From Nostoc punctiforme PCC 73102 (GTDB lineage: Bacteria; Cyanobacteriota; Cyanobacteriia; Cyanobacteriales; Nostocaceae), in contig NC_010628.1 in NCBI RefSeq assembly GCF_000020025.1, positions 6,030,001 through 6,062,000 of the forward strand: 32,000 bases of DNA, given 5' to 3'. A program made the translations under genes and the position numbers. The notes beneath the pieces were generated by a model. It saw only the letters and a list, made by a program, of their open reading frames with translations. It ran no database searches and had not been told where the DNA came from. Positions 462 through 31,051 of the stretch are shown here, in pieces. Positions within the stretch are counted from its first letter, which is position 1; the number at the start of each line of letters is the position of its first letter.

Positions 462-3400
462 ATGGCACCTAATCCAGCAGTTTTTAACCTCTCTGACCTC
501 GACGGGAACAATGGTTTTGCGATCGCAGGCTCTAACTTAATCATCTCGCCTAGGTCAAACTTTAGCAGTGACGGAGACATCAACAGCGACGGTATCGACG
601 ACCTGATAATTGGTGGTGCTGACGAAAGCTACGTAGTGTTTGGCAACAGCAATGGCTTTGAAGCTAGCTTCAAACTCTCCGACCTCAACGGCAGCAACGG
701 CTTCGTGATTAGCAGTGGCTATTTAGGCTACTCCGTCAGCATTCCCGGAGACATCAATGGTGATGGCATCGACGACCTAATTATCGGGGCACCAGGTGCC
801 TCTCCCAACGGCAAGATTAATGCTGGGAAAAGCTACGTGGTCTTTGGCAACAGCAATGGCTTTGGAGCCAGCCTCAATCTCTCTTCTCTGGACGGCAGCA
901 ACGGCTTCGTAATCAACGGCATTGATCGGCTTAACTACTCAGACTCCCTTGTAAGCAGTGCCGGAGACATCAATGGTGATGGCTTAGACGACCTAATTAT
1001 CGGGGTAGCTGGTGCCTCTCCCAACGGCAAGTTTTCTGCTGGGAAAAGCTACGTGGTCTTTGGGAGTGACAGAGGCTTGGAAGCTAGCCTTAATCTCTCC
1101 GACCTCAACGGCAGCAACGGCTTCGTGATTAACGGCATTGATGAGGGTGACGGCTCCGGCTCCCCCGTTAGCAGTGCCGGGGACTTCAACGGTGACGGCT
1201 TCAACGACCTAATTATCGCGGCATCTGGTGCCGACCCCAACGGCAAGTTTTCTGCTGGGGAGAGCTACGTGGTCTTTGGCAGCGGCAGCGGCTTTGGAGC
1301 TAGCTTCAATCTCTCCGACCTCAACGGCAGCAACGGCTTCGTGATTAACGGCATTGATGAGCGTAACTACTCAGGAAACTCCGTCAGCAGTGTAGGAGAC
1401 TTCAACGGTGACGGCTTCGACGACCTGATTATCGGGGCAAGTAGTGCCGGCAAATTCGGTGCTGGGCAGAGCTACGTCGTGTTTGGGAGTGACAGAGGTT
1501 TGGGAGCTAGCCTTAATCTCTCCGACCTCAATGGCAGCAACGGCTTCGTGATTAACGGCATTGATGAGGGTGACAACTCAGGCATATCTGTTAGCAATGC
1601 GGGGGACTTCAACGGTGACGGCTTCGACGACCTAATTATCGGGGCACAACTTGCCTCCCCCAACGGCAAATTCGCTGCTGGGGAAAGCTACGTGGTGTTT
1701 GGCAGCAGCAGCGGCTTTGGAGCTAGCTTCAATCTCTCCGACCTCAACGGCAGCAACGGCTTCGCGATCAACGGCATTGATGTAAATGATCGTTCAGGCT
1801 ACTCCGTCAGCGGTGTAGGGGATATCAACGGCGATGGCTTTGACGACCTGAGTCTCGGGGCAACTTTTTACTCACGCGTCCAAACCTCTAGGGAGAGATA
1901 CATCATTTTTGGCTTTGCTACTACTACAGCTCCTAATCAACCTCCAGTCGCAGTTACCGACACTGCGACCACGAACGAAGACACTGCCGTTAACATTTCA
2001 GTTTTAACCAATGATAGTGACCCAGATAGCAACCCCTTAACAGTGACAAATGTCAACGGGAGTGCGGTGACTGTTGGCATCCCTGTTACCTTGAGTTCCA
2101 GTGCTTTATTAACTCTCAATGCTGATGGCACTTTCACCTACGACCCCAACGCTCAATTTGAAACTTTAGCTGTGGGTCAAACTGGCAGCGATAGCTTCAC
2201 CTACACAGTTAGCGATGGCAGCTTTACCAGTACAGTTGGCGTTAACCTGACCATCAATGGGGTGAATGATCCACCTAGGCTTGCCTCTGTTTTCAATCTC
2301 TCTAACCTCAATGGCAGTAACGGCTTTGCGATTAACGGCATTGATGAGGGTGACGGCTCAGGCTCCCCCGTTAGCAGTGCCAGGGACTTCAACGGTGACG
2401 GCTTCGACGACCTAATTATCGGGGCAAGTAATGCCGACCCCAACGGTCAGTTAAATGCTGGGGAGAGCTACGTAGTGTTTGGCAGCAGTAGTGCCTTTGG
2501 AACTAGCTTCACCCTCTCGTCCCTAGACGGCAGCAACGGCTTCGTGCTCAACGGCATTGATGAGTTTGACTTCTCAGGCTCCACCGTTAGCAGTGCTGGG
2601 GATATTAACGGTGACGGCTTCGATGACCTGATTATTGGGGCACCTTTTGCCTCCTCCAACGGTAAAGACCTTGCCGGAGAAAGTTACGTAGTGTTTGGCA
2701 GCAGCAGTGGCTTTGGAGCTAGCCTTAATCTTTCGTCTCTGGACGGCAGTAACGGCTTTGTGCTCAACGGCATTGATGCGTCTGACTTCTCAAGCGGCTC
2801 CGTTAACAGTGTCGGCGACATTAACGGTGACGGCTTCGATGACTTGATTATTGGCGCACCTACTGCCTCCCCTAACGGTAAAGAACGTGCTGGGGAAAGT
2901 TACGTAGTGTTTGGCGGTAGTAGCTTTGGAGCTAGCCTTAACCTCTCCAACCTCAATGGCAGCAACGGCTTCGTGATTAACGGCATTGATGAGGGTGACA
3001 ACTCAGGCTCCTCCGTTAGCAGTGTAGGGGACATTAACGGTGACGGCTTCGATGACCTGATTATCGGAGCACCTTCTGCCTCCTTTGATAATGGGGAGAG
3101 CTACGTAGTGTTTGGCAGCAGTAGTGGCTTTGGAGCTAACCTCAACCTCTCCGACCTCAACGGCAGCAACGGCTTCACGATCAACGGCATTGATGTGAAT
3201 TACCGTTCAGGCTCCTCCGTTAGCAATGCCGGAGACTTCAATGGTGATGGCTTCGATGACTTGATTATCGGGGTAAGCAATTACTCCCGCTACGCCAAAC
3301 CTGAGTACGGAGAAAGCTACGTGGTCTTTGGCAGCGGCAGCGGCTTTGGAACTAGCCTTAACCTCTCCGACCTCAATGGCAGCAACGGCTTCGCTATCAA

Positions 3401-4766
3401 AGGCATTGATGAGGGTGACAACTCAGGCTCCTCCGTTAGCAGTGCCGGGGATTTCAACGGTGACGGCTTCGATGACTTGATTATTGGGGCAGCTTTTGGC
3501 GACCCCAATGGCAAGTTAAATGCTGGGGAGAGCTACTTACTGTTTGGTAGCAGTAGCGGCTTTGGAGCTAGTTTCAATCTCTCCGACCTCAACGGCAGCA
3601 ATGGCTTCGCTATCAAAGGCATTGATGAGCGTGACTACTCTGGCTCCTCTGTCAGTAGTGCTGGAGACATCAATGGTGACGGCTTTGATGACCTAATTAT
3701 CGGGGCACCAAATAACTCCCGCTTTGCAACTGGAGCCGGGGAGAGTTACGTCATCTTTGGCTTTGCGACTAAGATTACCACTGTCACTGAGGAAGATACT
3801 GCCGTTAACATCCTTGCTAGCACCATTCTAAATAGATATTCTGATGTTGATGGCGATACCTTAAGTATCACTGGCTTTACTAACCCTGCCAACGGCACAC
3901 TGGCTTTCAACGACAACGGCACTGTTGGCAATCCCAACGACGACTATTTTGTTTACACCCCTAATGCCAACTATAACGATACTGACAGCTTTACTTACAC
4001 TATTAATGACAGCAATGGCGGTAGCATTACTGGTACTTTTAACCTGACTATCAACCCAGTTAACGATGCACCTATTACAGTGAATGATACTGTTACAGAT
4101 GCGAAAAATACTGCTGTGAGTATTGAAGCAAAAACCCTGTTGGCTAACGATCGCGACATCGATAGCACCAACCTCAGCATCACTGGTGTCAGCGCTGCAA
4201 CTCACGGTACTGCGGTGCTGAAAAATAACGGCACTCCCAGCAACTCGGCAGATGATTTTATCGTGTTTACACCAACTTGCGGGTTTAGCGGTGCGGCTAG
4301 CTTTAACTACACTATCACTGATGGCCAACTCACCAGCACTGCGAAGGTTACTATCCAAGTGGGCGATCGCTTTTTTGGTGACAACGGCAACGATGTACTC
4401 CACGGCACTCCCGGTAATGACTACCTCAATGGTGGTAATGGCAAAGACATCCTCTACGGTGGTAATGGCAAAGATACCCTCTCTGGCGGCAATGGTAACG
4501 ACCTTTTATCTGGTGGTCTTGGTAGTGATATCCTCACGGGTGGCAATGGTGATGATAAATTTGTCTTCGCTGCTGGAGAAGGTAATGGTATTATTACCGA
4601 CTTCTGCAAGGGCAACGATTTAATTGGCTTGTCTAATGGTCTGACCTTTAGCCAACTGAGTTTCTGTGGTAACAATATTATCGTGACTACTACTGATGAA
4701 ATCTTGGCAACGCTGACTGGTATTAACACTAATACCCTGATTGCCTCTAATTTCACAATCGTCTAA
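462..4766 (+). CDS. Giant secreted FG-GAP (integrin-alpha-like) repeat / cadherin-like domain / RTX calcium-binding repeat protein, 1434 aa
   Basis: Single 4.3-kb ORF. It has 14 units of about 70 aa with the motif LNLSDLNGSNGFxINGID...GDxNGDGxDDLIIGA...GESYVVFG (FG-GAP with Ca-binding DxNxDGxxD loops). There are three segments of the type TNEDTAVNI...D.D...L.....P.NGT....DG.F.YTP...F.G.DSFTYT..DG (cadherin-like/VCBS-like). C-terminal GGxGxDxL nonapeptides follow (GGNGKDILYGGNGKDTLSGGNGNDLLSGGLGSDILTGGNGDD). Confidence 0.9.
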   Translation: MAPNPAVFNLSDLDGNNGFAIAGSNLIISPRSNFSSDGDINSDGIDDLIIGGADESYVVFGNSNGFEASFKLSDLNGSNGFVISSGYLGYSVSIPGDINGDGIDDLIIGAPGASPNGKINAGKSYVVFGNSNGFGASLNLSSLDGSNGFVINGIDRLNYSDSLVSSAGDINGDGLDDLIIGVAGASPNGKFSAGKSYVVFGSDRGLEASLNLSDLNGSNGFVINGIDEGDGSGSPVSSAGDFNGDGFNDLIIAASGADPNGKFSAGESYVVFGSGSGFGASFNLSDLNGSNGFVINGIDERNYSGNSVSSVGDFNGDGFDDLIIGASSAGKFGAGQSYVVFGSDRGLGASLNLSDLNGSNGFVINGIDEGDNSGISVSNAGDFNGDGFDDLIIGAQLASPNGKFAAGESYVVFGSSSGFGASFNLSDLNGSNGFAINGIDVNDRSGYSVSGVGDINGDGFDDLSLGATFYSRVQTSRERYIIFGFATTTAPNQPPVAVTDTATTNEDTAVNISVLTNDSDPDSNPLTVTNVNGSAVTVGIPVTLSSSALLTLNADGTFTYDPNAQFETLAVGQTGSDSFTYTVSDGSFTSTVGVNLTINGVNDPPRLASVFNLSNLNGSNGFAINGIDEGDGSGSPVSSARDFNGDGFDDLIIGASNADPNGQLNAGESYVVFGSSSAFGTSFTLSSLDGSNGFVLNGIDEFDFSGSTVSSAGDINGDGFDDLIIGAPFASSNGKDLAGESYVVFGSSSGFGASLNLSSLDGSNGFVLNGIDASDFSSGSVNSVGDINGDGFDDLIIGAPTASPNGKERAGESYVVFGGSSFGASLNLSNLNGSNGFVINGIDEGDNSGSSVSSVGDINGDGFDDLIIGAPSASFDNGESYVVFGSSSGFGANLNLSDLNGSNGFTINGIDVNYRSGSSVSNAGDFNGDGFDDLIIGVSNYSRYAKPEYGESYVVFGSGSGFGTSLNLSDLNGSNGFAIKGIDEGDNSGSSVSSAGDFNGDGFDDLIIGAAFGDPNGKLNAGESYLLFGSSSGFGASFNLSDLNGSNGFAIKGIDERDYSGSSVSSAGDINGDGFDDLIIGAPNNSRFATGAGESYVIFGFATKITTVTEEDTAVNILASTILNRYSDVDGDTLSITGFTNPANGTLAFNDNGTVGNPNDDYFVYTPNANYNDTDSFTYTINDSNGGSITGTFNLTINPVNDAPITVNDTVTDAKNTAVSIEAKTLLANDRDIDSTNLSITGVSAATHGTAVLKNNGTPSNSADDFIVFTPTCGFSGAASFNYTITDGQLTSTAKVTIQVGDRFFGDNGNDVLHGTPGNDYLNGGNGKDILYGGNGKDTLSGGNGNDLLSGGLGSDILTGGNGDDKFVFAAGEGNGIITDFCKGNDLIGLSNGLTFSQLSFCGNNIIVTTTDEILATLTGINTNTLIASNFTIV
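480..1916 (+). repeat. Tandem FG-GAP blade repeats, block 1 (7 units, about 210 nt period)
   Basis: Seven consecutive (F/L)NLS(D/S)L(D/N)G(S/N)NGF-initiated units (aa 7-485). Long stretches are near-identical at nucleotide level, e.g. ctctccgacctcaacggcagcaacggcttcgtgattaacggcattgatga recurs. Confidence 0.85.
2286..3764 (+). repeat. Tandem FG-GAP blade repeats, block 2 (7 units)
   Basis: Seven more units of the same type (aa 609-1101). They are separated from block 1 by a cadherin-like domain (about 1941-2273). Confidence 0.85.
4374..4562 (+). repeat. RTX (hemolysin-type) Ca-binding nonapeptide repeats
   Basis: GDNGNDVLHGTPGNDYLNGGNGKDILYGGNGKDTLSGGNGNDLLSGGLGSDILTGGNGDDKF. This is the consensus GGxGxDxL/I/F repeat typical of type I secretion substrates. 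Confidence 0.85.
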
Positions 4767-6700: not shown

Positions 6701-6893
6701 TAGTTAGATGCTGATGAACTGCTGTAACTATTAAAACAACACTGATGACAGTGACAATTTCGGAAAAAGAACAGCTTTAATTTTAGGTAAAAACTGCTAA
6801 TGTAATATTCCGTTGCTTTGCAAAATCCGGCTTGAAAGGGTATACCACAAGGTAGGCCCCTAAAGATATTTTGGCTTGTGGTTGGAGATGCTT

Positions 6894-9524
6894 ATGTCCT
6901 TTGTGCCTTTACATATTCACAGTGACTACAGTCTATTAGATGGGGCAAGTCAGCTACCAGAGTTGGTAGATCAAGCGATCGCACTGGGGATGAAAGCGAT
7001 CGCCCTTACCGATCATGGTGTCATGTATGGAGCCGTTGAACTGATCAAAATCTGCCGTAGTCAAAATATTAAGCCGATTATCGGCAATGAAATGTATGTA
7101 ATTAATGGTGATATCGAGAAACAAGAACGTCGCCCCAAATATCATCAAGTCGTTTTAGCTAAAAATACCAAAGGTTACAAAAATTTAGTCAAATTAACTA
7201 CAATTTCTCATCTTCAAGGTGTTCAAGGCAAAGGAATCTTTTCACGTCCTTGTATTAATAAAGATTTACTAAAACAATACCATGAAGGCTTGATTGTCAC
7301 CAGTGCTTGCTTGGGTGGAGAAGTTCCCCAAGCGATTCTCAGTAATAGACCAGATGCAGCCCGGAAAGTTGCACAGTGGTATAAAGATGTATTTGGTGAT
7401 GATTATTATCTAGAAATTCAAGACCACGGCTCCCAAGAAGACCGAATAGTGAATGTTGAAATAGTTAAAATTGCTAGAGAACTAGGCATTAAAATTATTG
7501 CTACTAATGATTCACATTTTATTTCTTGTTTCGACGTTGAAGCCCACGACGCTTTGCTATGTATTCAAACTGGCAAGCTAATTATTGAAGATAAGCGGAT
7601 GCGTTATAGCGGCACAGAGTATCTCAAATCTGGTGAAGAGATGCGGCAGCTATTTCGTGACCATTTGCCGGATGATGTGATTTCTGAAGCTGTAGCCACT
7701 ACTGAAGAAGTCGCTGATAAAGTCGAGCCTTACCATATCATGGGTGAGCCTCAGATACCTACACCCCCCATTCCCTCCGGTCATACTGCTGACACTTACG
7801 CCGAAGATGTTGCATGGAACGGACTTTTAGAACGATTAAATCGCAAATCTCGCCAGGAAGTTGATTCCGTCTATAAAGAAAGATTGGAATACGAACTGAA
7901 AATGATTCAGCAGATGGGTTTTTCCAAATACTTTTTAGTTGTATGGGACTACATTAAATTTGCTAGAGATAATAATATTCCTGTCGGGCCAGGTCGGGGT
8001 TCGGCGGCTGGTTCGTTAGTTGCTTATGCAATGCGAATTACTAATATTGATCCTGTGCATCATGGGCTACTATTTGAACGTTTTTTGAACCCCGAACGGA
8101 AATCCATGCCTGATATTGATACGGATTTCTGTATTGAACAACGGGATAAAGTTATTGAATATGTCACTGAGAAATACGGTGCAGATAGAGTTGCCCAAAT
8201 CATTACTTTTAACCGTCTAACTTCTAAGGCAGTTTTGAAAGATGTCGCCAGAGTATTGAATATTCCCTACGGGGAAGCTGACAAAATGGCGAAATTAATT
8301 CCTGTAGTGCGAGGGAAACCAACAAAACTCAAGGTGATGGTTTCCGATAAAACTCCAGAACCAGAGTTTAAAGAAAAATATGATAAAGAACCCCATGTTC
8401 GCCATTGGCTTGATATGGCGATGCGAATTGAAGGAACTAACAAAACCTTTGGTGTTCATGCAGCCGGGGTGGTAATTTCAGACGAACCACTTGATGAAAT
8501 TGTGCCGCTACAGAAAAATAATGATGGTTCTGTGATTACCCAGTATTTCATGGAAGATCTCGAATCAATGGGTTTGTTAAAAATGGATTTTCTGGGTTTG
8601 CGGAACCTGACGCTGATTCAAAAGACCGTTGATTTGATTCAAGAAACGAGAGGATATCGGGTTGATCCTGATGAAATTCCGCGCCAGGAAAGAAAAGCCC
8701 AAAAGATATTAGCTAAAGGTGAACATAGCAGTTTACCTAAAGATGTACAAAAAACTTATGAATTATTAGAAGCAGGTGAGTTAGAAGGGATATTTCAATT
8801 AGAATCTTCGGGAATGCGTCAGATAGTGCGAGATTTGAAGCCTTCTAATATAGAAGATATTTCTTCAATTTTGGCACTTTATCGACCGGGGCCATTAGAT
8901 GCGGGGCTGATTCCTAAGTTTATTAACCGCAAACATGGTCGAGAAAACATTGATTATCAACACACTGTTTTAGAACCAATATTAGACGAAACTTATGGAA
9001 TTATGGTCTATCAAGAGCAAATCATGAAAATTGCTCAGGATATGGCTGGATATTCTTTAGGACAAGCTGACTTGCTGCGTCGGGCGATGGGTAAAAAGAA
9101 AGTTTCTGAGATGCAAAAGCAGCGAGAAAAATTCGTGGATGGCGCAGCAAAAAATGGTGTTCCGAAAAAAGTTGCGGATGAGTTATTTGAGCAAATGTTG
9201 AAGTTTGCTGAATATTGTTTAAGCTATGAAACGGAAATATTGACAGTAGAATATGGATTATTACCGATTGGTAAAATTGTAGAAAAGCGCATCGAATGTA
9301 CTGTTTATAGCGTTGATAATAATGGAAATATTTATACACAACCTGTAGCACAATGGCACGATCGCGGAGAACAAGAGGTGTTTGAGTATTGTTTGGAAGA
9401 TGGTTCATTGATTCGGGCAACAAAAGACCATAAGTTTATGACTGTTGATGGTCAAATGTTGCCAATTGATGAAATATTTGAACGTGAATTGGATTTGATG
9501 CGGGTTGATAATTTGCCGAATTGA
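6894..9524 (+). CDS. dnaE: DNA polymerase III alpha subunit, N-terminal split half (DnaE-n) fused to an N-intein
   Basis: PHP-domain N-terminus [17 protein letters not shown] and pol III alpha core motifs ([30 protein letters not shown]). The ORF stops after only about 775 aa of extein plus 102 aa of intein. The track start (TTG 6876) and ATG 6888 are alternatives. ATG 6894 gives the canonical N-terminus. Confidence 0.9.
6975..7003. repeat. Two HIP1 (GCGATCGC) octamers, an example of the cyanobacterial highly iterated palindrome
   Basis: GCGATCGC at 6975-6982 and 6996-7003. I found at least 22 copies in the window by eye, starting at 519, 4363, 4915, 6975, 6996, 10182, 10713, 11004, 11990, 12015, 15454, 15814, 15869, 15957, 17754, 19088, 19688, 20707, 21718, 21981, 27537 and 28529. 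Confidence 0.9.
9216..9521 (+). other. Split-intein N fragment (DnaE IntN, 102 aa)
   Basis: It begins with Cys after the extein end ...KFAEY| : [102 protein letters not shown], followed by the stop codon. From memory this is identical to the Npu DnaE N-intein used in protein engineering. Confidence 0.9.
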
Positions 9525-20947: not shown

Positions 20948-21328
20948 ATGTCTACAGAAATTGGTTTGGCTGAATTCATCCAGCAAGTAAAAAAAGAACT
21001 ACTGACTACTTACCCAAAGAATGAAAATGATACACCAATACTGTGTGTAGATTCTGTTGAGTTGGAACTACAAGTCACAGTCAAAACAGAAGGAAAGGGT
21101 GGTATAAAAATTAATGTTCTCCTCGGCGGAGAATTATCAGGCGGGGTTAGTAAGGATGGTGTACAGAAGGTAAAAGTGCAACTCTCGCCACTGTTAACTA
21201 AAGAGCAGATTCTCAAAGCCTACTACAAAGAAAATCCGGAAAAATGGCAGAAGTTTTTGGAGACAACTGTGGACGCATTACTGAAAGGTGATGGGGAAAG
21301 CAACCTCAATGAAGACCTCGGTGGCTAA
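20948..21328 (+). CDS. Small trypco2-like protein (trypsin/CHAT co-occurring beta-rich domain), 126 aa
   Basis: Pattern LAEFIQQVKKEL......P.L.VDSVELELQVTVKTEGKGGIKINVL.GGELSGGVSKDGVQKVKVQLSPL. From memory this matches the trypco2 family consensus (helix, then strands ending in h.h.L.P). AAGGA lies 7 nt upstream of the ATG. Confidence 0.6.
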   Translation: MSTEIGLAEFIQQVKKELLTTYPKNENDTPILCVDSVELELQVTVKTEGKGGIKINVLLGGELSGGVSKDGVQKVKVQLSPLLTKEQILKAYYKENPEKWQKFLETTVDALLKGDGESNLNEDLGG

Positions 21329-21356: not shown

Positions 21357-22916
21357 GTGAACACACTAGAACTGAGATTTTATCCGATTGAAGGGAAGCA
21401 GCATAGCTTCAAAGTGAGTGTCGAGGGTTCATCAGGGGAAGTCCATTATGAACCAGAGCTACCTTTTCTTGATGGTGAGATTCCAGATGTTGTGGATAGA
21501 CGTTTCACTATAGTTAAAGTATTAGAGTCAACTAAGTTTGACAACAATACCTTTGAAGATGAAAATGAGCAGGCTTGGATGCTACGCACAAGCCTTCTGC
21601 TGTCAGAGGGGAATGATTTTAAGCCTGGGTATTTGGCTGCTATCGGGAGTATACTCTATCAAGTATTAGGTAATAGTATTCAGCAGGTAATTGAGACAGC
21701 AGTAGCAGATGCTAAACGCGATCGCACCTGGTTACATATTCGGTTGAGATTTCCATCTGACGATCCCAAATTTGTCCATTTGACCGATTATCCTTGGGAG
21801 TTGCTCCATAACGATTATGATTTTCTGGCACATCAAGGCGTGACTTTCTCTCGTTATATTGCCTATGGCAGTCCTTGTCCCAACTTACCTACTGTTGAGC
21901 AGCTCAATGTCTTGTTGATTTCTTCTGGAGCAGGTGATAAAAGGCTGGGGCTACAATCCTTACCTGCTCTTGAGCAAGAAGCGATCGCCCAAGGACTTCA
22001 ACAAGCCAAAAATGAAGGGTTAATCCAACTGGAAATTCTCGCTCCTCCAACATGGAATGCTCTACGAACACGGTTGCTAGAGCGTCGAAATGCGGCAGTT
22101 CCTCATGTTCTCCATTTTGATGGTCATGGTTTTTTTGGAAAGCGCTGTAACCTAGCAGGATGCCGGAAAGCTTATAAGCAGAGTGCAACTCGTTGTGAAT
22201 GTAGTGCAACATTAGGAGAAGCCCAAGGTTATCTATTGTTTGAGCAATCTGATAGCACTGCCGACTATGTAAGTGCTAGGGAACTTGGTGAAATGTTGGG
22301 TAATTTGGAGCGTCGAGAGCAACCTAATTCAGATTGGGGAGTTACATTGGTAGTTCTCAGCGCTTGCAGAAGTGGAATGTCTCGTTTAAGTGAAACTGTC
22401 TTTAATGGTGTAGCTCAAAAGTTGATTGGTCAAGGTATTCCGGCTGTGGTGGCAATGCAGTATTCTGTCCGCGTGGATGCTGCTAGTGCTTTTTCTGAAG
22501 ACTTTTACAAATCACTTGGGCAAAAAGAGTCACTGGCAATCGCACTACGGCGAGGACAAAGTGCAATGGGGATTGAAGGTAATCAATGGTATCGCCCTGT
22601 GCTGTATCTGCGTTGGGAAGATAACGAGGGAGGAAAATTATTCAAGGATTCTCCAGAACGACCAAATGGTGAGTCTCAGGTTATCCTTTCCAAGGATGAT
22701 AGCTCAGTCAACATAGGAGCTACCTTTAGTAGCCCAGATAATGTCAAACGAAAAATTCTCACTGAGCGCCAAGAAAAATTAGAAAAGGAATATACATTAA
22801 TCAATCAACAAATTGATGAAACTATTGATGAGGTTTTGCGCTCTCGTCTTGAATTAAAGGCTGAAAGGATTTTTCGAGATTTGGAAAAGGTAAAATCTGA
22901 TTTATCAAAACTATAA
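21357..22916 (+). CDS. CHAT-domain (caspase-like) protease with N-terminal uncharacterised domain and C-terminal helical adaptor module, 519 aa
   Basis: Caspase-fold catalytic dyad context: PHVLHFDGHG (His257, nt 22125-22127) and TLVVLSACRSG (Cys336, nt 22362-22364), followed by IPAVVAMQYSV. GTG start. Confidence 0.8.
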   Translation: MNTLELRFYPIEGKQHSFKVSVEGSSGEVHYEPELPFLDGEIPDVVDRRFTIVKVLESTKFDNNTFEDENEQAWMLRTSLLLSEGNDFKPGYLAAIGSILYQVLGNSIQQVIETAVADAKRDRTWLHIRLRFPSDDPKFVHLTDYPWELLHNDYDFLAHQGVTFSRYIAYGSPCPNLPTVEQLNVLLISSGAGDKRLGLQSLPALEQEAIAQGLQQAKNEGLIQLEILAPPTWNALRTRLLERRNAAVPHVLHFDGHGFFGKRCNLAGCRKAYKQSATRCECSATLGEAQGYLLFEQSDSTADYVSARELGEMLGNLERREQPNSDWGVTLVVLSACRSGMSRLSETVFNGVAQKLIGQGIPAVVAMQYSVRVDAASAFSEDFYKSLGQKESLAIALRRGQSAMGIEGNQWYRPVLYLRWEDNEGGKLFKDSPERPNGESQVILSKDDSSVNIGATFSSPDNVKRKILTERQEKLEKEYTLINQQIDETIDEVLRSRLELKAERIFRDLEKVKSDLSKL

Positions 22917-22967
22917 ATTTTATATTTTTATATTAGTTAATTTTTTATAAAGAGAAAAGGTTGATTC

Positions 22968-23975
22968 ATGAATGTGAGGTCTGAGATACTAAGAGAATCA
23001 CCAATTGAAGTTAAGCGTAAAACTCTAAATAAGCGTTATACAGATTTGTTAAATCAATATACGTTAGCTAATCAAAAAATTGATGAGACAATTGAAGAGT
23101 CTGAACGTTACCGTCGGCAACAAGAGGCAGATAGATTGTACAGCGATCTAGAAGCTGTTGATAGAAAACTAAAACAACTTGATAAACAAAGCATTAATTC
23201 AAATCGTCGCTACTTAAATCTTGAACAAGATATAGCCAAAATTGATTTTGAGCAAGTAATGGAAAAAATTGACGAGATTATTCGTGGATTTCGTCGAGGA
23301 GTTAGAGGAGATGCATTGATAATAGTTCAAGAAAACCTTGCAATGGCTGGAGATTTATGCATTAAAAGAATACAAGAACGATTAGGGCAGGAAACAGGAG
23401 ATTTTAAGCATATTGAAATTGAATTTTCTCCTGAAGGATGTTTAGACAAAGTTGGTTTTTTAGAGAAGTTAGCAGAATATTTTAATGCTTCTTTTACTAA
23501 AGAGCCAGAGCAATTTGAGCAAGACTGTATTCAACTAATTATAGAAAAAATATGTGGTTCGCTTCAGGGAGGTAGTATTCTTTTTATGGAAGTTAGAAAA
23601 TGGGATGAGCTACCATGTCAAGAAGATATTTTTCAATGGTTTATTACTAGTTTTTGGATGCCTCTTATAGCTCGTTTAGAAATAGTTTCTCAAACTCATC
23701 GACGAGTGAAATTTATTGGTGCTATTGTGGCTGATGCAGAGTTTTCTTCAAGTTGTATCGATTTCGATTATTTATGTCTAGGTGAAAATCCTCCTAAAAT
23801 GCTGGTGTTACCTTTACAATTTTGGACGGTTGATGAAATTCAGGAATGGTTAGAATGCTATCCGGGTCTGGACAATCCTCGCAGTATACAACTAGCAAAA
23901 CGTATTCATCGAGCAAGTCAGAAGGGAATTCCATCACTAGTATGTACTGCATTGAGAAAAGAATTTATTGCATAA
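22968..23975 (+). CDS. Adaptor-like protein, 335 aa: N-terminal helical module homologous to the CHAT C-terminus plus an uncharacterised alpha/beta C-terminal domain (possible vWA-MoxR-associated, VMAP-type component)
   Basis: aa 15-71 align without gaps to CHAT aa 463-519, with 28/57 identical by hand count. The rest has alternating strand-like and helix-like segments (ALIIVQENLAMAG, SILFMEVRKWDELP, VKFIGAIVADAE). No intact Walker motifs were seen. Confidence 0.55.
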   Translation: MNVRSEILRESPIEVKRKTLNKRYTDLLNQYTLANQKIDETIEESERYRRQQEADRLYSDLEAVDRKLKQLDKQSINSNRRYLNLEQDIAKIDFEQVMEKIDEIIRGFRRGVRGDALIIVQENLAMAGDLCIKRIQERLGQETGDFKHIEIEFSPEGCLDKVGFLEKLAEYFNASFTKEPEQFEQDCIQLIIEKICGSLQGGSILFMEVRKWDELPCQEDIFQWFITSFWMPLIARLEIVSQTHRRVKFIGAIVADAEFSSSCIDFDYLCLGENPPKMLVLPLQFWTVDEIQEWLECYPGLDNPRSIQLAKRIHRASQKGIPSLVCTALRKEFIA

Positions 23976-24027: not shown

Positions 24028-25005
24028 ATGGCTACAGTATCTAACCGATTAAAGTTTACGGGTGATTTCAACGCTCAACCTGAAAATCCACATAAGCATT
24101 CACCAACGCACCCAGAACCTTATATAATTTCTCCCGAATTAAAAAAAGCCGTCAATTTAGCTATCTACCTCCGGCGACCATTATTATTAGAAGGAGATGC
24201 GGGATGTGGTAAAACTCGCCTCGCTTCGGCTGTTGCTTATGAGTTAGGATTACCCCTTTACCGTTGGGATGTCCGTTCTACTACTAGAGCTTTGGATGGA
24301 CTATATGAATACGATGCAATTTTGAGACTGCATGATGTACAAACGCAGAAAGTAGCACCACTACCAATAGATGAATCACAAACAGATGAGGATGAAGATG
24401 AAGAAAGGTTAAATCATAATCCTGCTAATCCTAAGCACTACCGTAAATTTGGAGCGTTAGGAAAGGCATTTAAGTTAAAAGATTGTCCAGCAGTTGTGTT
24501 AATTGATGAGATTGATAAAGCAGATTTAGATTTTCCCAATGATTTGCTGACTGTATTAGATGAGCCTTGGGAATTCAAGATTAAGGAAACTGGGGAAACG
24601 ATTCGCGCTAACCATAAACCTATTGTCATCATTACTAGTAATAAAGAAAAAGGTAACTTACCTGCGCCATTTCTGCGGCGTTGCTTATATTACTATGTAG
24701 ACTTTCCTAATGAGAAGAAGCGATTACAGGAAATTGTCGAAAAACATTACCAAGTTCGTGAGGAAACACCCCCGCCTAGTGCTTTGGTGGAGAATGCGGT
24801 TGAGCGTTTCCTGGCTGTGTGGAATGAAGGTGGACTCTTCAAGAAACCGGGAACCAGTGAATTTCTTGATTGGCTAAAAGCACTCCACACCTTTGAGCCA
24901 AAACCATACAATGCAGCGCAACTTAAAAAAGACAAGCTACTACCCTACCGAGAGTTATTATTTAAGCTTCAGCAAGACTGGAAGAAATATGCTAAAACCT
25001 CATGA
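24028..25005 (+). CDS. MoxR-like AAA+ ATPase (AAA_5 type), 325 aa
   Basis: Walker A LLLEGDAGCGKTRLA (nt 24193-24216), Walker B AVVLIDEIDKAD (DE at 24505-24510), sensor-1-like VIITSN, and LRRC arginine. An acidic insert DESQTDEDEDEE is present. Confidence 0.85.
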   Translation: MATVSNRLKFTGDFNAQPENPHKHSPTHPEPYIISPELKKAVNLAIYLRRPLLLEGDAGCGKTRLASAVAYELGLPLYRWDVRSTTRALDGLYEYDAILRLHDVQTQKVAPLPIDESQTDEDEDEERLNHNPANPKHYRKFGALGKAFKLKDCPAVVLIDEIDKADLDFPNDLLTVLDEPWEFKIKETGETIRANHKPIVIITSNKEKGNLPAPFLRRCLYYYVDFPNEKKRLQEIVEKHYQVREETPPPSALVENAVERFLAVWNEGGLFKKPGTSEFLDWLKALHTFEPKPYNAAQLKKDKLLPYRELLFKLQQDWKKYAKTS

Positions 25006-26096
25006 GTTCCTTTAACCCCCAAGATTTAATTACTCGTGCCTTTATTCGTCTGCGCCAAAGTGGTTTTCAGCTTGGCGTGGGTGAACTTTTGGCGGCGAGA
25101 CAAGCAGTTGAGGGGGGATTTGGGGAAACTCCAGAAGAATTAGCTGAGACGTTGAAAATTTTATGGTGTCACTCTCCTTCAGAACAAACTCAGTTTGACC
25201 CCATTTGGGAATCTCTACCAGTCAATTTAAACCCCAAACTACCTGAAAAAAACCCTGGACAAGAATCAAAACCAGAAAAACATCAACAACAGGAGGAGAA
25301 ACCCCAAGAAAAACCATCACCACCGCCTTCTCAGGAAACTGGGACTGAAATCAAATCTGAACTGGAACTAGCATCACTCCCAATTCGCGCACCTTTTACT
25401 CCTGCGGAAACTGAGGATATATCTACATTACAGGCATACTATCCCATTTCCCGGCGTTCGATGATCTATAGCTGGCGATATCTCCGCCGACCTGTTGGGG
25501 ATGGGCCATTAAATGTACTAGATGTCGATGCCACCATTGAGCAAACCACTCGCCAGGGATTTTACTTAGCTCCAGTTTACCGCAGACAAGAAAGGAATAA
25601 TGCCCATCTGTTACTGCTGCTTGACCAAAATGGCTCGATGAACCCGTTTCACCGCTTCACTCGTGATTTAGTGGAAACGGCACTCTACGAAAGTTCTCTG
25701 CAACCAGAAAAAGTAGATGTATTTTATTTCCATAACGTGCCTGCTGCCAGTGTTTACAAAGACCTCTACCTGACAGAACCAATTGCTCTACAAAGGGTAT
25801 TAGCCGCCTGCGATAATCAAACTAGTATATTGATTGTCAGTGATGCTGGCGCTGCACGGGGGTATCGGGAGTTAAAGCGAATTCAGGCAACTACAAGTTG
25901 TTTATTTAAATTGAACCAGTACACTTCTTTGATTGCTTGGTTAAATCCTATGCCTGAAGAACGCTGGATTGGCAGTTCAGCAGAAATCATTGCTAATTTG
26001 GTGCCAATGTATCAGATGGATAATAATGGCTTAAGTAATGCTATTGATATTGTGCGCGGACAACCTCTCCAACACTTACATTCACCTCTCTCATGA
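25002..26096 (+). CDS. vWA-domain protein (CoxE-like, MoxR partner), 364 aa
   Basis: It overlaps the MoxR stop by 4 nt (ATGA). MIDAS-region strand LLLLLDQNGSMNPF (nt 25623-25640) and later strand ILIVSDAGAARG. A P/E/Q/K-rich low-complexity linker spans aa 78-118. Confidence 0.75.
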   Translation: MSSFNPQDLITRAFIRLRQSGFQLGVGELLAARQAVEGGFGETPEELAETLKILWCHSPSEQTQFDPIWESLPVNLNPKLPEKNPGQESKPEKHQQQEEKPQEKPSPPPSQETGTEIKSELELASLPIRAPFTPAETEDISTLQAYYPISRRSMIYSWRYLRRPVGDGPLNVLDVDATIEQTTRQGFYLAPVYRRQERNNAHLLLLLDQNGSMNPFHRFTRDLVETALYESSLQPEKVDVFYFHNVPAASVYKDLYLTEPIALQRVLAACDNQTSILIVSDAGAARGYRELKRIQATTSCLFKLNQYTSLIAWLNPMPEERWIGSSAEIIANLVPMYQMDNNGLSNAIDIVRGQPLQHLHSPLS

Positions 26097-28039
26097 CAGA
26101 TTTAGCTAATGCAGGGCAATTGCGAGAACAGGCGAAACAAGCAGTAGATAGATTTGTGCGGCGTTTCGATAAATCCTATCGACTATTAGCGTATCATGCT
26201 GCATTACCTTTGGTACTGACTCCAGAATTAGTAAACTACCTACGCAATGAGTTTTTGCGAAGTGAGCAAGTTCCTTGGGTAGCAGAGGTTGACTTGTTGT
26301 TGTCTGACCTGTGCAGTCAAGTGGGGTACGAACTTTACGCAATGGAAACCCATGTGCGGGAATATCTCCTAGAGCAAATGCAGCAAGACTCAAGCTTTGG
26401 CAAGCAGCGAATGCAAGAAGTAGCACAGGTCTTATACAGTTATGTCAGTTATCTAAGTCGGCTTAATCCCGGAAGACGGCAACAGGAAATAGAAGCTCAA
26501 CGATGGGCAGCAATGGTATATTTGGGGGATGAACAGTGTAAAAAGGCAGCGAGTGAAATTGTCCAGCGACTAATAGAAACCATTAGTGGAACAGATAGCG
26601 AAATTCTCTCTGACTCTGGTATTCGGGCTGAGTTAGCACGATTAGCACGCATTACCAAAGAACTATCGCCTCAGTTACAGCAAGAGCCTACTTTACTAGA
26701 GTCTGCAAGATTGGTACAGCAAGTTTTAAGAACATCACAGAAAGTTCCTGCGCTAGAAGAGTTGGCAAAGATTTTGACATCTTCTAAGCAGATAGTTGCT
26801 AATCTGGAAGGCTTTCCACCAATACAAACTTTTGAATTTCAAGTAGCAAGCATCACTATTCAGAGTGATGATATAGAAGCATTTAATCTTCAAATCTTTG
26901 AATTTGAAGTAGCAACTATCACAGGAATCAACGAGTCTAATATATCAAGTACAATTAATTCTGTAGAAATTGTTGATAATCTAGTATTTTCTCAAATAGA
27001 AAAACACCTAAGTAGAGTTGAAGAGTTAATCATACAGGCAGCAATATCAAATCAAAGTTATAAGAAAATTACAATACAAGGTTATACCACAAACTACCTA
27101 AGTAATGTTGCTAGCAAATTATGGAAAGTTTTATCGGCAGCATTAGGCGAAAAAGTTAATAAATCAAATTTAAAGAATGTTATTCAACGGTGGGTAAATT
27201 ATTCTCAAATAGATATTCACCGCAGTCTTGGACAAGCTCAGTATTTTATCGAAGACTTTGGGAATGGAATTTGGCTAGAGATGGTGCAGATTCCCGGAGG
27301 CACTTTTGTAATGGGTTCACCGGAAGATGAACTAGAGCGCCATGATGATGAAGATCCTCAGCATACAGTAACAGTACAGCAATTTTGCATGGGTAAACAC
27401 CCAGTAACCCAAGCACAGTGGAGAGCAGTAGCAGCACTACCGCAATTTAACCGCGAACTTGATGCTGACCCCTCTGAATTTAAAGGTGCAAATCGACCAG
27501 TTGAGCAAGTTTCCTGGTACGATGCGGTTGAATTCTGCGATCGCATCTCCCAACATACAGGAAAAAGCTACCGTCTGCCCAGCGAAGCAGAATGGGAATA
27601 TGCCTGTCGCGCTGGAACTACCACCCCATTTCATTTTGGTGAAACAATCACATCAAAACTGGCAAACTATAATGCTAGCTACACTTATGGCGCGGGTGTG
27701 GAAGGAATATATCGCCAAGAAACTACAGTTGTGGGCAGTTTTGGAGTAGCTAATGCCTTTGGGTTATACGATATGCACGGAAACATAGACGAATGGTGTC
27801 TCGATGATTGGCACGATAACTATGAAGGTGCGCCTACAGATGGCAGTGCTTGGCTTGACGAAAATGATAACCTTTATCAAAAACAAGGACGTGCCGTGCT
27901 GCGGGGCGGTTCCTGGTTCAACAATCCTGATTTCTGCCGTTCCGCGTCCCGCGTCATCAACAGTTGGGCGGAGCGCGACAACGTCGTCAGCAATGTTGGT
28001 TTTCGTGTTGTCTGCGCGTTCGGGAGGATTCTTCAGTAG
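26093..28039 (+). CDS. DGR target protein 1, 648 aa: N-terminal helical domain, duplicated FEF(E/Q)VA(S/T)IT motif, HTH-like segment, and C-terminal FGE-sulfatase (C-type-lectin fold) domain carrying VR1
   Basis: It overlaps the vWA stop by 4 nt (ATGA). C-terminal domain motifs: GGTFVMGS, HPVTQAQW, RLPSEAEWEYACRAG, YDMHGNIDEW, RGGSW...CRSASR. The last 47 codons coincide with VR1. Confidence 0.9.
   Translation: MTDLANAGQLREQAKQAVDRFVRRFDKSYRLLAYHAALPLVLTPELVNYLRNEFLRSEQVPWVAEVDLLLSDLCSQVGYELYAMETHVREYLLEQMQQDSSFGKQRMQEVAQVLYSYVSYLSRLNPGRRQQEIEAQRWAAMVYLGDEQCKKAASEIVQRLIETISGTDSEILSDSGIRAELARLARITKELSPQLQQEPTLLESARLVQQVLRTSQKVPALEELAKILTSSKQIVANLEGFPPIQTFEFQVASITIQSDDIEAFNLQIFEFEVATITGINESNISSTINSVEIVDNLVFSQIEKHLSRVEELIIQAAISNQSYKKITIQGYTTNYLSNVASKLWKVLSAALGEKVNKSNLKNVIQRWVNYSQIDIHRSLGQAQYFIEDFGNGIWLEMVQIPGGTFVMGSPEDELERHDDEDPQHTVTVQQFCMGKHPVTQAQWRAVAALPQFNRELDADPSEFKGANRPVEQVSWYDAVEFCDRISQHTGKSYRLPSEAEWEYACRAGTTTPFHFGETITSKLANYNASYTYGAGVEGIYRQETTVVGSFGVANAFGLYDMHGNIDEWCLDDWHDNYEGAPTDGSAWLDENDNLYQKQGRAVLRGGSWFNNPDFCRSASRVINSWAERDNVVSNVGFRVVCAFGRILQ
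27899..28025 (+). repeat. DGR variable repeat VR1
   Basis: 127-nt ungapped match to the TR (30586-30712). All 15 mismatches fall at TR adenines and there are no other differences. Confidence 0.93.
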
Positions 28040-28191: not shown

Positions 28192-29031
28192 ATGCCAAAA
28201 ATAGTTATAAGCCACACACAGAAGACAGCCCAATACTATGTAGAAGACTTAGGTAATGGAATTAATTTAGAGATGGTGGTGATTCCTGCGGACAGTTTTA
28301 TGATGGGTTCATCAGAAGATGAACTAGAGCGTAGTGATTCAGAAAGCCCTCAGCATTTAGTGAACGTTAAACAATTTTGTATGGGTAAGTATCCAGTTAC
28401 CCAAGCACAGTGGAAAGCCGTAGCAGCACTACCAGGGGTTAACAGAGAGCTAGAAGCTGACCCATCGAATTTCAAAGGAGATCAACGACCTGTAGAGAAA
28501 GTATCTTGGTACGATGCGGTAGAGTTTTGCGATCGCCTTGCTGCCCATACTAAAAGACAGTACCGCCTACCCAGTGAAGCCGAATGGGAATATGCCTGTA
28601 GAGCCGGAACTACGACTCCATTCCATTTTGGCGAAACAATTACATCAAAGTTAGCCAACTATGATGCTAACTATACTTATGTCGCAGGTGAGAAAGGAAC
28701 ATATCGACAAGAGACTACACCTGTGGGCAGTTTTGGCGTAGCTAACGCCTTTGGGCTATACGATATGCACGGAAATGTGTTGGAATGGTGTCTCGACGAT
28801 TGGCACGATAACTATGAACGTGCGCCGACAGATGGTAGTCCTTGGTTTAATGATAATGATAGCCTTTACCAAAGACAAGGAAATGCTGTACTGCGGGGCG
28901 GTTCCTGGATCTTCGATCCTGATTACTGCCGTTCCGCGTCCCGCAACCTCAGCTATAGGGCGGAGCGCGACGGCATCCTCAGCACTCTTGGTTTTCGTGT
29001 TGTCTGCGCGTTCGGGAGGATTCTTCAGTAG
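28192..29031 (+). CDS. DGR target protein 2, 279 aa: stand-alone FGE-sulfatase (C-type-lectin fold) domain protein carrying VR2
   Basis: Collinear paralog of aa 382-648 of the upstream protein, with the same motifs (RLPSEAEWEYACRAG, YDMHGNVLEW, RGGSW...CRSASR). The last 47 codons coincide with VR2. Confidence 0.9.
   Translation: MPKIVISHTQKTAQYYVEDLGNGINLEMVVIPADSFMMGSSEDELERSDSESPQHLVNVKQFCMGKYPVTQAQWKAVAALPGVNRELEADPSNFKGDQRPVEKVSWYDAVEFCDRLAAHTKRQYRLPSEAEWEYACRAGTTTPFHFGETITSKLANYDANYTYVAGEKGTYRQETTPVGSFGVANAFGLYDMHGNVLEWCLDDWHDNYERAPTDGSPWFNDNDSLYQRQGNAVLRGGSWIFDPDYCRSASRNLSYRAERDGILSTLGFRVVCAFGRILQ
28891..29017 (+). repeat. DGR variable repeat VR2
   Basis: 127-nt ungapped match to the TR. 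All 17 mismatches fall at TR adenines and there are no other differences. Confidence 0.93.
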
Positions 29032-29140: not shown

Positions 29141-29485
29141 ATGAAAGAATTATCGGTCATCCAAAAGACCTATGATTGTATTAAATGGTATGTGCCAATT
29201 ATTGAGCGATTGCCGAAAATACATAAGTTTTCTTTAGGAGATAGGATAATTAATCAACTATACGATTTATTGGAGGGTTTAATTAAAGCCAAATATGCGA
29301 AAAATAAACTTCCTCAACTAGAATCTCTCAATACAGAGCTAGATATTTTACGATATCAAACACGAATGCTGCTTGACTTCAATAAAATATCAGTTGAGCG
29401 ATACGAATATGCAATAAAATTATTAGATGAAATTGGTATTGAACTAGGTGGATGGATTAAAAAACAAAGAGAGAGGGAAAACTAA
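29141..29485 (+). CDS. avd: DGR accessory variability determinant (Avd; four-helix-bundle, 23S rRNA IVS protein family), 114 aa
   Basis: Size, position immediately upstream of the RT, and family pattern Y....WY.....LPK..KF.LGDRI......LLE.LI.A.Y...K...L......L..LR...R. Confidence 0.8.
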   Translation: MKELSVIQKTYDCIKWYVPIIERLPKIHKFSLGDRIINQLYDLLEGLIKAKYAKNKLPQLESLNTELDILRYQTRMLLDFNKISVERYEYAIKLLDEIGIELGGWIKKQREREN

Positions 29486-29505: not shown

Positions 29506-30564
29506 ATGAAGCGTTACGGCAACCTTTACCCTCAAATTATTGATTTTGAAAATATACTTTTAGCATCTCGTCAGGCACAAAAAGGCAAGAGATTTCGGGA
29601 TAATGTTTTAGATTTTAATTATCATCTAGAAACTGAATTAATTAGATTGCAGGAACACTTAAAAGATAAAACTTATCAGCCAGGAGCTTACCGAACCTTT
29701 CACCTGATAAATCCCAAAAGCCGCCTCATTTCAGCCGCACCCTATCGGGATAGGGTTGTTCATCATGCACTATGCAATGTAATAGTACCAATTTTTGAGA
29801 GAACTTTCATTGCTGACTCCTACGCTAATCGAATTGGTTTTGGGACGCATCGAGCTTTAAAAAAATTTACTCATTTTGTTAGGAACAGCCGTTATATACT
29901 GCAATGTGATATTAGGAAATATTTCCCTACTATTGACCATATAACTTTAAAAGAATTAATACGCCGTAAAATCAAATGCCTCGATACATTGTGGTTAATT
30001 GACGCTATCATCGACAACAGCAACGAACAAGAAACGGTAATTGATTATTTTCCTGGTGATGATTTACTTACTCCTGTGACTCGTAGGAGAGGTTTACCTA
30101 TCGGAAATTTAACTAGCCAATTTTTTGCCAATATTTATTTAAATGGTTTTGACCATTTTATAAAAGAACAGCTAAATATATCCAAATATGTCCGTTATGT
30201 TGATGACTTTGCTTTATTTAGTAATGACCGAGAATTCTTAGCAGATGCCAGATTCGCTATAGAAGAATATTTAGCTCAATTGAGGCTGAAAATTCACCCA
30301 GTTAAAAGCCAGTTATTTGAAACGAAAATTGGTGCAACTTTTCTAGGGTTTAGAGTATTTTCAGACAGAATACGGGTAAGAAATAGCAATTTACATCAAG
30401 CAAGGCGCAGACTCAAGCGATTGAAAACAGACTATGCTCAAGGTAAAATTGAACTCAAGGAAGTAACTCAATCTATAAAAAGTTGGGTTGCTCACTTAGA
30501 ACATGGCGATACTTGGCAATTACGCAAACAGATATTTACTTCCCTCTGTTTTAGGAGAAAGTAG
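29506..30564 (+). CDS. DGR reverse transcriptase, 352 aa
   Basis: RT motifs: [62 protein letters not shown] (the DGR-typical IGxxxSQ), the catalytic YVDD at nt 30196-30207, and FLGFRVF. No maturase or endonuclease extension. The TR lies 22 nt downstream. Confidence 0.92.
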
Positions 30565-30585
30565 AGAAGGGGTATGCGAACCCGA

Positions 30586-30712
30586 CTGCGGGGCGGTTCC
30601 TGGATCAACAATCCTAAAAACTGCCGTTCCGCGTCCCGCAACAACAACAATAGGGCGGAGCGCGACAACATCAACAACAATATTGGTTTTCGTGTTGTCT
30701 GCGCGTTCGGGA
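30586..30712 (+). repeat. DGR template repeat (TR)
   Basis: An AAC/AAT-rich invariant copy of the VRs: ctgcggggcggttcctgg atcaacaatcctaaaaac tgccgttccgcgtcccgc aacaacaacaatagg gcggagcgcgac aacatcaacaacaatatt ggttttcgtgttgtctgcgcgttcggga. It contains 32 adenines, 29 of them in three variable patches. Confidence 0.93.
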
Positions 30713-31051
30713 TGTCTCTTCACCGCGAGAGTCGGCAGGTGGGAATCTGTCGAGAGTGCAACCGAAGAGTCCAGCCTACACCTGTGATGTCGGTGACGAT
30801 ATCCGAAAATCAAACTGGGTGGGGTAGCTTGGTAAGCTTGCTGAACAGTTACCTCACCATCCAACTATTCATATAACTTTTCACACTACTCTTCATTTCC
30901 AAGAAAAGTCAACGAATTAGCTTAATAGAGATAAATTACCTTAGCCATATTACTTACAACAAAACATCCAACTGTTTTATTTATCAACCTTGATGGTAGC
31001 TAGTTCAACTAAACTAGATGTACTATCAGTCTAATAGTTAGACTGATATTT

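Follow-up and report, generated by a model that had tools for sequence, protein, structure and literature searches.

The DNA analysed here, called the window throughout, is a stretch of 32,000 nucleotides from Nostoc punctiforme PCC 73102 (contig NC_010628.1, positions 6,030,001 to 6,062,000). Judged from its sequence, it contains a MoxR-vWA ternary conflict system of the iSTAND type, with FGS target proteins that are diversified by a diversity-generating retroelement (DGR). Two adjacent genes of this system, one for a CHAT peptidase and one for an iSTAND protein, share a short helical module that ends the first protein and begins the second. The module is the published effector-associated domain (EAD) EAD9, and the pair in the window is another member of what has been known since 2020, both as a Pfam family and as a named principle. 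The features that matter most for this pair are the following:

20948..21328, forward strand: Trypco2 small protein of 126 aa, first gene of the operon (PF19631, E 2.5e-18, full length)
21357..22916, forward strand: TCAD3-CHAT-EAD9 protein of 519 aa, a caspase-like peptidase (Pfam TCAD3 E 3.3e-31, CHAT E 2e-27, EAD9 E 3e-20)
22578..22727, forward strand: predicted disordered tether, CHAT aa 408-457 (low AlphaFold2 confidence, low identity among homologues)
22728..22913, forward strand: EAD9 copy 1, CHAT aa 458-519, C-terminal helical hairpin (PF19962, 72.2 bits)
22917..22967, forward strand: intergenic spacer of 51 nt between the CHAT and iSTAND genes, AT-rich, read off the sequence
22968..23975, forward strand: EAD9-iSTAND protein of 335 aa, the third component of the ternary system (Pfam EAD9 E 7.8e-17, iSTAND E 1.2e-8)
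22995..23180, forward strand: EAD9 copy 2, iSTAND-protein aa 10-71, N-terminal helical hairpin (PF19962, 61.2 bits)

In the CHAT protein, TCAD3 occupies aa 1-45 and the CHAT body aa 101-404. The protein is 100% identical to the NCBI entry for a Nostoc punctiforme CHAT protein (P0139), and the EAD9-iSTAND protein is likewise 100% identical to a protein of N. punctiforme (P0001).

The module shared by two adjacent genes

The first-pass annotation of this DNA had placed the shared module at CHAT aa 463-519 (window 22743..22913) and at aa 15-71 of the iSTAND protein (23010..23180), had counted 28 of 57 residues as identical by hand and had called the rest of the two proteins unrelated. The coordinates proved exact and the ungapped count of 28/57 was reproduced. 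BLASTP of the whole proteins against each other finds this segment alone, with 30 of 61 residues identical, no gaps and an E value of 2e-12, and gives no other match better than E 60 for the remainder of the two chains. It had also been considered that the similarity might reflect generic coiled-coil composition, and this is ruled out by a shuffle test in which one of the two segments was randomised 20,000 times. The Smith-Waterman score of the segment pair is 127, compared with a mean of 30.8 (SD 5.8, maximum 65) for the shuffles (z = 16.5), and none of the 20,000 shuffles equals it; the ungapped identity of the shuffled segments averages 5.2 of 57 residues and never exceeds 15.

The Pfam family EAD9 (PF19962) spans both segments in full, from profile position 1 to 62 of 62. 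CHAT aa 458-519 scores 72.2 bits (E 3e-20) and iSTAND-protein aa 10-71 scores 61.2 bits (E 7.8e-17), both against a gathering cut-off of 25 bits. The Pfam start corresponds to a conserved Ser-Pro, which lies 5 residues ahead of the box drawn in the earlier annotation. A search of the six-frame translation of the window with a hidden Markov model built from 24 EAD9 copies gave no third copy.

At the DNA level the two copies are 60% identical overall, with 46% identity at third codon positions and 74-75% at second positions. Among the residues that are identical between the copies, 13 of 30 use the same codon, compared with 10.5 expected from the local codon usage. Because codon agreement is near chance while the protein identity persists, the two copies are, on this evidence, old paralogues and not the product of a recent duplication, their likeness at the protein level having been kept by selection.

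AlphaFold2, run with homologue alignments, predicts two helices for each copy: 460-488 and 492-518 in CHAT (predicted local distance difference test score, pLDDT, 87-96) and 12-40 and 44-76 in the iSTAND protein (pLDDT 86-93). The CHAT tether (aa 408-458) has a pLDDT of 26-42, and in the iSTAND protein a disordered tether (aa 77-92) precedes a STAND-like alpha/beta body (aa 93-335). EAD9 is thus predicted to be an antiparallel two-helix hairpin of about 60 residues at the end of a disordered tether. It contains no catalytic motifs and has no match to the Death-family models of Pfam; a search of PDB sequences gave no match below E 0.07 and no solved structure of EAD9. The earlier comparison of the module with death domains therefore stands for the logic of the arrangement and falls for homology, since two helices in about 60 residues differ from the six-helix bundle of the Death fold.

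The same annotation had described the second protein as an adaptor. That it carries the shared module is right, and the label can be refined: the protein is the third member of the ternary system, with an inactive STAND NTPase module (iSTAND). The iSTAND domain (PF19995) scores 35.9 bits, above its cut-off of 24. In a Foldseek search with the AlphaFold2 model, the best matches were the NB-ARC modules of plant nucleotide-binding leucine-rich-repeat receptors (NLRs; NRC2, Sr35 and ZAR1), ORC/Cdc6 and Apaf-1, and these fold matches are consistent with the iSTAND assignment. A Walker A motif (GxxxxGK[ST]) after the first strand, at residues 115-121, is present neither in the iSTAND protein, which reads ENLAMAGDLC there, nor in any of 14 homologues.

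The CHAT peptidase is probably active, because the caspase-type His and Cys residues, H257 (in HFDGHG) and C337 (in SACRSG), are invariant in 39 homologues; H253 is invariant in them as well. Four further cysteines, C264, C269, C280 and C282 (window 22146..22202, aa 264-282, GKRCNLAGCRKAYKQSATRCEC), are invariant in the same 39 homologues. This stretch between the catalytic His and Cys looks like a zinc-ribbon-like insert, and no description of it was found.

Conservation of the pair and distribution of EAD9

Relatives of the EAD9-iSTAND protein are scarce, with 15 clusters among 5.8 billion sequences. Scans with an alignment of the iSTAND protein yielded two loci on genome contigs and four on metagenome contigs, partly duplicates, and most loci were reached through look-ups of exact proteins. 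In total, 12 distinct loci were compared: that of the window and L001, L002, L003, L005, L008, L011 and L013-L017. In all 12, the module that begins the iSTAND protein recurs at the end of the gene immediately preceding that of the iSTAND protein, so that the pairing, whose conservation had been put forward as a check, is kept in each of the 11 further loci. The paired module is called EAD9 by Pfam in 11 of the 12; both copies of L017 are too divergent for Pfam, yet they are 86% identical to each other. The distance from the stop codon of the first gene to the start codon of the second ranges from -10 to about 140 nt.

The enzyme in front of the module varies. It is CHAT in seven loci (the window, L002, L003, L008, L011, L014 and L015), Peptidase_C14 in L005, L013 and L017, Trypsin_2 in L016, and TIR in L001, a locus of the Nostocales strain HT-58-2 whose iSTAND protein is 71% identical to that of the window. 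The suggestion that the module might be found on other effector types is therefore borne out, with TIR, caspase C14 and trypsin domains occupying the same gene slot. Trypco2 precedes the EAD9-tagged enzyme gene in six loci (the window, L001, L002, L003, L008 and L015), its companions being CHAT-EAD9 genes and, in L001, the TIR-EAD9 gene. Trypco1 takes its place in the trypsin-EAD9 locus L016, and L005 and L017, both with caspase C14, are without either gene. In L017 an alpha/beta-hydrolase gene stands in place of Trypco; such a gene has been described by Kaur et al. for caspase-bearing systems. Trypco2 takes its name from co-occurrence with trypsin.

An exhaustive profile search of 1.84 billion representative sequences gave only 124 EAD9 matches at E <= 1e-3, and in almost all of them the module lies at one end of the protein or a few residues from it. 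No matches came from a word-indexed homology search with a two-sequence EAD9 alignment, the short and divergent query sharing too few exact words with its targets. Of the longer matches, 70 were examined in two groups with Pfam, which independently called EAD9 in every one. A few very long, repetitive proteins with many short partial stretches (P0016, P0028 and P0115) were treated as coiled-coil noise and stand outside the counts of architectures. In the first group, 37 proteins with an N-terminal EAD9, the module is followed by iSTAND (18), VMAP-C (2), NB-ARC (2), WD40 and others. The second group, 29 proteins with a C-terminal and four with an internal EAD9, includes TIR (7), caspase (2), trypsin (2) and CHAT (2), as well as patatin, SIR2, PNP_UDP, protein kinase and other EADs. 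The module thus shows a polarity, N-terminal EAD9 being found mostly on scaffolds and C-terminal EAD9 on enzymes. An exception to this polarity is P0046 (638 aa), a trypsin-beta-propeller protein with an N-terminal EAD9. Two other proteins also depart from the usual pattern: P0031 (798 aa), in which five EAD9 copies in tandem come after an nSTAND1 NTPase and which is possibly a multivalent docking platform, and P0034 (541 aa), a VMAP protein with both EAD9 and EAD1.

The tail of the CHAT protein is exchanged at a fixed place. In CHAT proteins whose bodies are 66-79% identical to that of the window, the similarity stops at aa ~430-437 (window ~22644..22667), right after YLRWEDNEGGQLF, and the alignments place a sharp recombination breakpoint just there. 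Past this point the proteins continue into EAD1 (P0156, P0163), EAD2 (P0147, P0166), TIR plus EAD9 (P0152), EAD1 plus EAD9 (P0178) or SAVED (P0162), or are fused directly to VMAP-M1/VMAP-C (P0187) or FGS (P0153). Among 39 CHAT-EAD9 orthologues the mean pairwise identity is 69% for the body, 17% for the tether (aa 431-457) and 30% for the EAD9 tail. No natural single-chain fusion of enzyme, EAD9 and iSTAND was found, as recombination between the direct repeats would yield. Two candidates were rejected: P0117 (TIR, EAD9, ~350 aa), in which EAD9 alone matches the iSTAND-protein family in a profile comparison, and P0105, which is an iSTAND protein with an N-terminal extension of 84 aa.

The surrounding system and its retroelement

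Downstream of the EAD9-iSTAND gene, the system continues with its ATPase, vWA and FGS genes and with the DGR:

24028..25005, forward strand: MoxR-like AAA+ ATPase of 325 aa (AAA 35.6, AAA_2 34.4 and AAA_5 33.1 bits, all above cut-offs)
25002..26096, forward strand: vWA protein of 364 aa, overlapping the MoxR stop codon (VWA_CoxE E 3.3e-10, 40.2 bits against a cut-off of 26.4)
26093..28039, forward strand: FGS protein of 648 aa, first DGR target (FGE-sulfatase E 2.1e-54, aa 396-640, C-type-lectin fold)
27898..28035, forward strand: DGR variable region 1 (VR1), in the first FGS gene (138-nt alignment with the template repeat)
28192..29031, forward strand: stand-alone FGS protein of 279 aa, second DGR target (FGE-sulfatase E 3e-52)
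28890..29027, forward strand: DGR variable region 2 (VR2), in the gene of the 279-aa FGS protein (aligned to the template repeat)
29141..29485, forward strand: bAvd, DGR accessory protein (PF22296, E 1.5e-20)
29506..30564, forward strand: DGR reverse transcriptase (RVT_1, E 5.4e-21)
30585..30722, forward strand: DGR template repeat (TR) with 34 adenines (BLASTN identity 87% to VR1 and 86% to VR2)

The MoxR-like gene is syntenic in every related locus, and its MoxR clade was assigned by synteny with the systems of Kaur et al., not by a clade-specific model. The FGS domain is encoded by the gene directly after that for vWA, and the same order is found in L001, L002, L003, L005, L007 and L016, counted among the related loci whose sequence reaches that far. 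The first 395 residues of the 648-aa FGS protein (window 26093..27277) have no Pfam match; the orthologue in L001 matches HTH_VMAP-M9, and the region presumably corresponds to the vWA-L linker that Kaur et al. described in 2021.

From its sequence features, the segment 26093..30722 of the window holds a complete DGR with two targets, and both FGS genes terminate in variable regions. Mismatches fall at TR adenines in 16 of 19 cases for VR1 and in 17 of 20 for VR2. The few differences between VR and TR at other nucleotides are confined to the last 12 nt, which read GAGGATTCTTCA in the VR and GATGTCTCTTCA in the TR, and this end looks like a boundary of the initiation-of-mutagenic-homing (IMH) type. 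An Asn-rich open reading frame of 100 aa at window 30574..30876 (RNNNNRAERDNINNN) is the TR of the DGR read in frame and is probably not a gene.

Upstream of the system lie housekeeping genes and one large repeat protein, none of them part of it. The repeat protein (window 462..4766, 1434 aa) has FG-GAP, bacterial Ig, cadherin-like and RTX repeats and is unrelated to the system. At window 6876..9524 the N-terminal half of DnaE is encoded, with PHP, polymerase III alpha and finger domains; from aa 781 it continues into a tail that ends in DNLPN. This tail is the N-terminal part of the split intein of Npu DnaE, which is widely used in protein trans-splicing, and it is in keeping with the N. punctiforme identity of the protein matches. 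PADLOC contains no model of the present system, and neither it nor the PDB sequence search gave a relevant match to EAD9 or to the iSTAND protein; the CHAT protein weakly matches the SAVED_CHAT model of PADLOC, through the protease body only.

Proposed homotypic docking and its place among known systems

Pairs of this kind have been described by Kaur, Burroughs, Iyer and Aravind (eLife 2020; PMC7159879), who defined EADs by a terminal module that is duplicated between a core component (VMAP, iSTAND, Ubl or GAP1) and an enzymatic effector or signalling protein, for the most part encoded next to it. The EADs were found to be small and mostly all-alpha, homotypic, Death-domain-like coupling was predicted for them as the "EAD-coupling principle", and EAD9 was listed among the EADs that recruit signalling components (PMC7159879). 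The "EAD principle" was restated in 2021 (PMC8195603). The first-pass annotation, which had read the shared terminal module in terms of effector-associated domains and had proposed homotypic recruitment of the protease to the MoxR/vWA/sensor complex, had thereby arrived at this published principle, with EAD9 as the module, and its reading is supported. The copies in the window match the family in full, being small, all-alpha, non-enzymatic, terminal and shared between a core component and the enzyme of the adjacent gene, and there is no essential difference from it.

We consider it probable that the paralogous EAD9 copies dock the CHAT peptidase onto the iSTAND scaffold of the MoxR-vWA system by homotypic pairing. 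The two hairpins would bind each other, most simply as a four-helix bundle, and this docking would hold the separately encoded protease on the iSTAND/MoxR/vWA assembly. A trigger would lead to MoxR-driven remodelling or oligomerisation of the scaffold, by which the tethered CHAT domains would be clustered and activated by proximity, in a manner that would parallel the recruitment of caspases through CARD in apoptosomes. The DGR-diversified, lectin-fold FGS domains would supply the variable ligand-binding surface.

Which component should be called the effector depends on the published scheme that is followed. Kaur et al. 2020 treated FGS as an effector that is released by the protease, and counted it as the commonest effector in iSTAND ternary systems (about 22%; PMC7159879). 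Dore et al. (PNAS 2024; PMC10907252) assigned the role of sensor to FGS/CLec and that of effector to the peptidase or TIR protein in related, DGR-linked ternary systems. The CHAT protein, which had been described as the effector at the outset, would thus be a signal-transducing protease in the first scheme and keeps its original label in the second. Under both readings alike, it is through EAD9, acting as a plug, that one enzyme can be exchanged for another.

The evolution of the paired copies bears on this interpretation. Over the 12 loci, the identity between the enzyme-side copy and the iSTAND-side copy averages 58% in cis and 32% in trans, and none of 100,000 permutations reaches the observed sum. 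Within the non-Nostocales clade, the true pairing ranks first of 720 permutations. In the clade of the window, the enzyme-side copies are of one orthologous type and the scaffold-side copies of another, and the two types are about 45% identical to each other, compared with about 25% to their counterparts in the other clade. Because the types within this clade are closer to each other than to their counterparts, we conclude that homogenisation or re-duplication took place after the two clades had separated. In four loci (L013, L014, L016 and L017) the paired copies are 59-86% identical as proteins and 71-90% as DNA, and the codons at identical residues are 79-96% identical, which indicates recent homogenisation at the DNA level, by gene conversion or re-duplication. 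The pair of the window shows no sign of such a recent event. Since the conversion of one partner would break an asymmetric lock-and-key pair, we take the fact that near-identical pairs have been fixed repeatedly as an indirect sign of a self-compatible, homotypic interface.

Several points weigh against homotypic docking. In the Nostocales clade, to which the window belongs, identity in cis (38-49%) is no better than in trans, the true pairing ranking 76 of 120, and the enzyme-side copies are 64-87% identical to each other, which is above their identity to their own partners; judged by these comparisons, the locus of the window carries no locus-specific matching signal. Where cis similarity is high in other loci, gene conversion between neighbouring repeats could have produced it as a neutral side effect. 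The searched literature names EAD9 in a single relevant paper and holds no measurement of a physical interaction of EAD9 or of any other EAD, and we infer the sensor and effector roles as well as the activation step.

These points leave room for another account, which we regard as unlikely, namely that the EAD9 copies bind a common third partner, such as Trypco2, the MoxR hexamer, vWA or a nucleic acid, or that each copy self-oligomerises its own protein. Co-occurrence and similarity alone are the same for mutual binding and for binding to a shared target. Trypco2 accompanies both CHAT-EAD9 and TIR-EAD9 in its six loci, and the cross-identity of 38-49% between the enzyme and scaffold types in the window's clade is as expected of surfaces that have specialised separately. 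However, there is no constant small partner, as the caspase loci L005 and L017 are without Trypco2 and L016 has Trypco1. Enzyme heads are elsewhere fused straight to scaffold domains, as in the CHAT-VMAP-C protein P0187, and this is an argument that the tag serves to connect the enzyme with the scaffold. The polarity of scaffold-N and enzyme-C copies, together with the repeatedly tolerated homogenisation, fits mutual homotypic pairing best. That the similarity is a matter of composition, or a functionless relic left by the fission of an enzyme-iSTAND fusion gene with duplication of the junction, is extremely improbable and effectively excluded: the copies do abut the gene boundary in every locus, as such a fission would leave them, but composition fails the shuffle test, the pair of the window retains 49% amino-acid identity although its synonymous sites are saturated, and agrees better at second than at third codon positions, which argues for purifying selection on both copies, and the module is carried by four enzyme classes in the slot and elsewhere by kinase, patatin and SIR2 proteins, always at a terminus.

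An extension of homotypic docking can be put forward only tentatively. EAD9 pairs may be locus-private docking codes, in which a symmetric four-helix bundle drifts fast in specificity and is re-matched by gene conversion. Fast drift is suggested by the identity of 30% for the tail as against 69% for the CHAT body, and periodic re-matching by the 79-96% identical codons in the four loci named above. If this were true, the paralogous conflict systems of one genome would be insulated from cross-talk while their heads swap at a fixed breakpoint, and the pair of the window would represent a "frozen" heterotypic stage, unconverted since before the Nostocales loci diverged.

Compared with known systems, the locus corresponds to the iSTAND-type MoxR-vWA systems of Kaur et al. 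2020 (subsystem 2), with which it shares the MoxR AAA+ ATPase, vWA, an EAD at the start of the iSTAND protein, FGS as the variable domain and a cyanobacterial host. It differs in that its FGS gene is separate from the vWA gene, a minority arrangement according to Kaur et al. 2021 (PMC8195603), and in its two-target DGR, whereas the 2020 paper links DGRs mainly to VMAP systems (PMC7159879). With the systems of Dore et al. 2024 it shares MoxR-linked, DGR-diversified FGS/CLec proteins beside peptidase or TIR genes with adapter domains; an EAD8 pair was given the same homotypic-recruitment reading there, and EAD9 and the present locus were not treated (PMC10907252). The logic is also that of the CARD, DD, DED and Pyrin adaptors of animal apoptosomes and inflammasomes, where one small helical module is shared by a protease of the caspase family and a scaffold of the STAND type, which implies recruitment and activation by proximity, and the iSTAND body of the window resembles the NB-ARC of Apaf-1 and of plant NLRs. 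However, there is no homology to the Death-fold adaptors: EAD9 is predicted to be a two-helix hairpin and has no sequence relative in the PDB, and the STAND module of the window has no P-loop.

What is added to the published account of EAD9 is detail, namely the hairpin on a tether, the polarity, the constant position at which tails are swapped and the mixture of old paralogy and recent homogenisation, and the picture is unchanged by it. EAD coupling explains how enzymes can be exchanged in conflict systems without rebuilding the scaffold; the idea has been in print since 2020, and a new example adds nothing to the concept. The locus is a convenient test case, as N. punctiforme is cultivable and genetically tractable, the system is compact, its modules of about 60 residues sit on flexible tethers, and natural relatives with swapped heads are at hand. 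If they are orthogonal, such short, self-matching hairpin tags could serve as protein-docking parts. For the biology of these systems, it has been proposed that EAD coupling does in bacteria what recruitment through CARD and Death domains does in the cell-death machines of animals.

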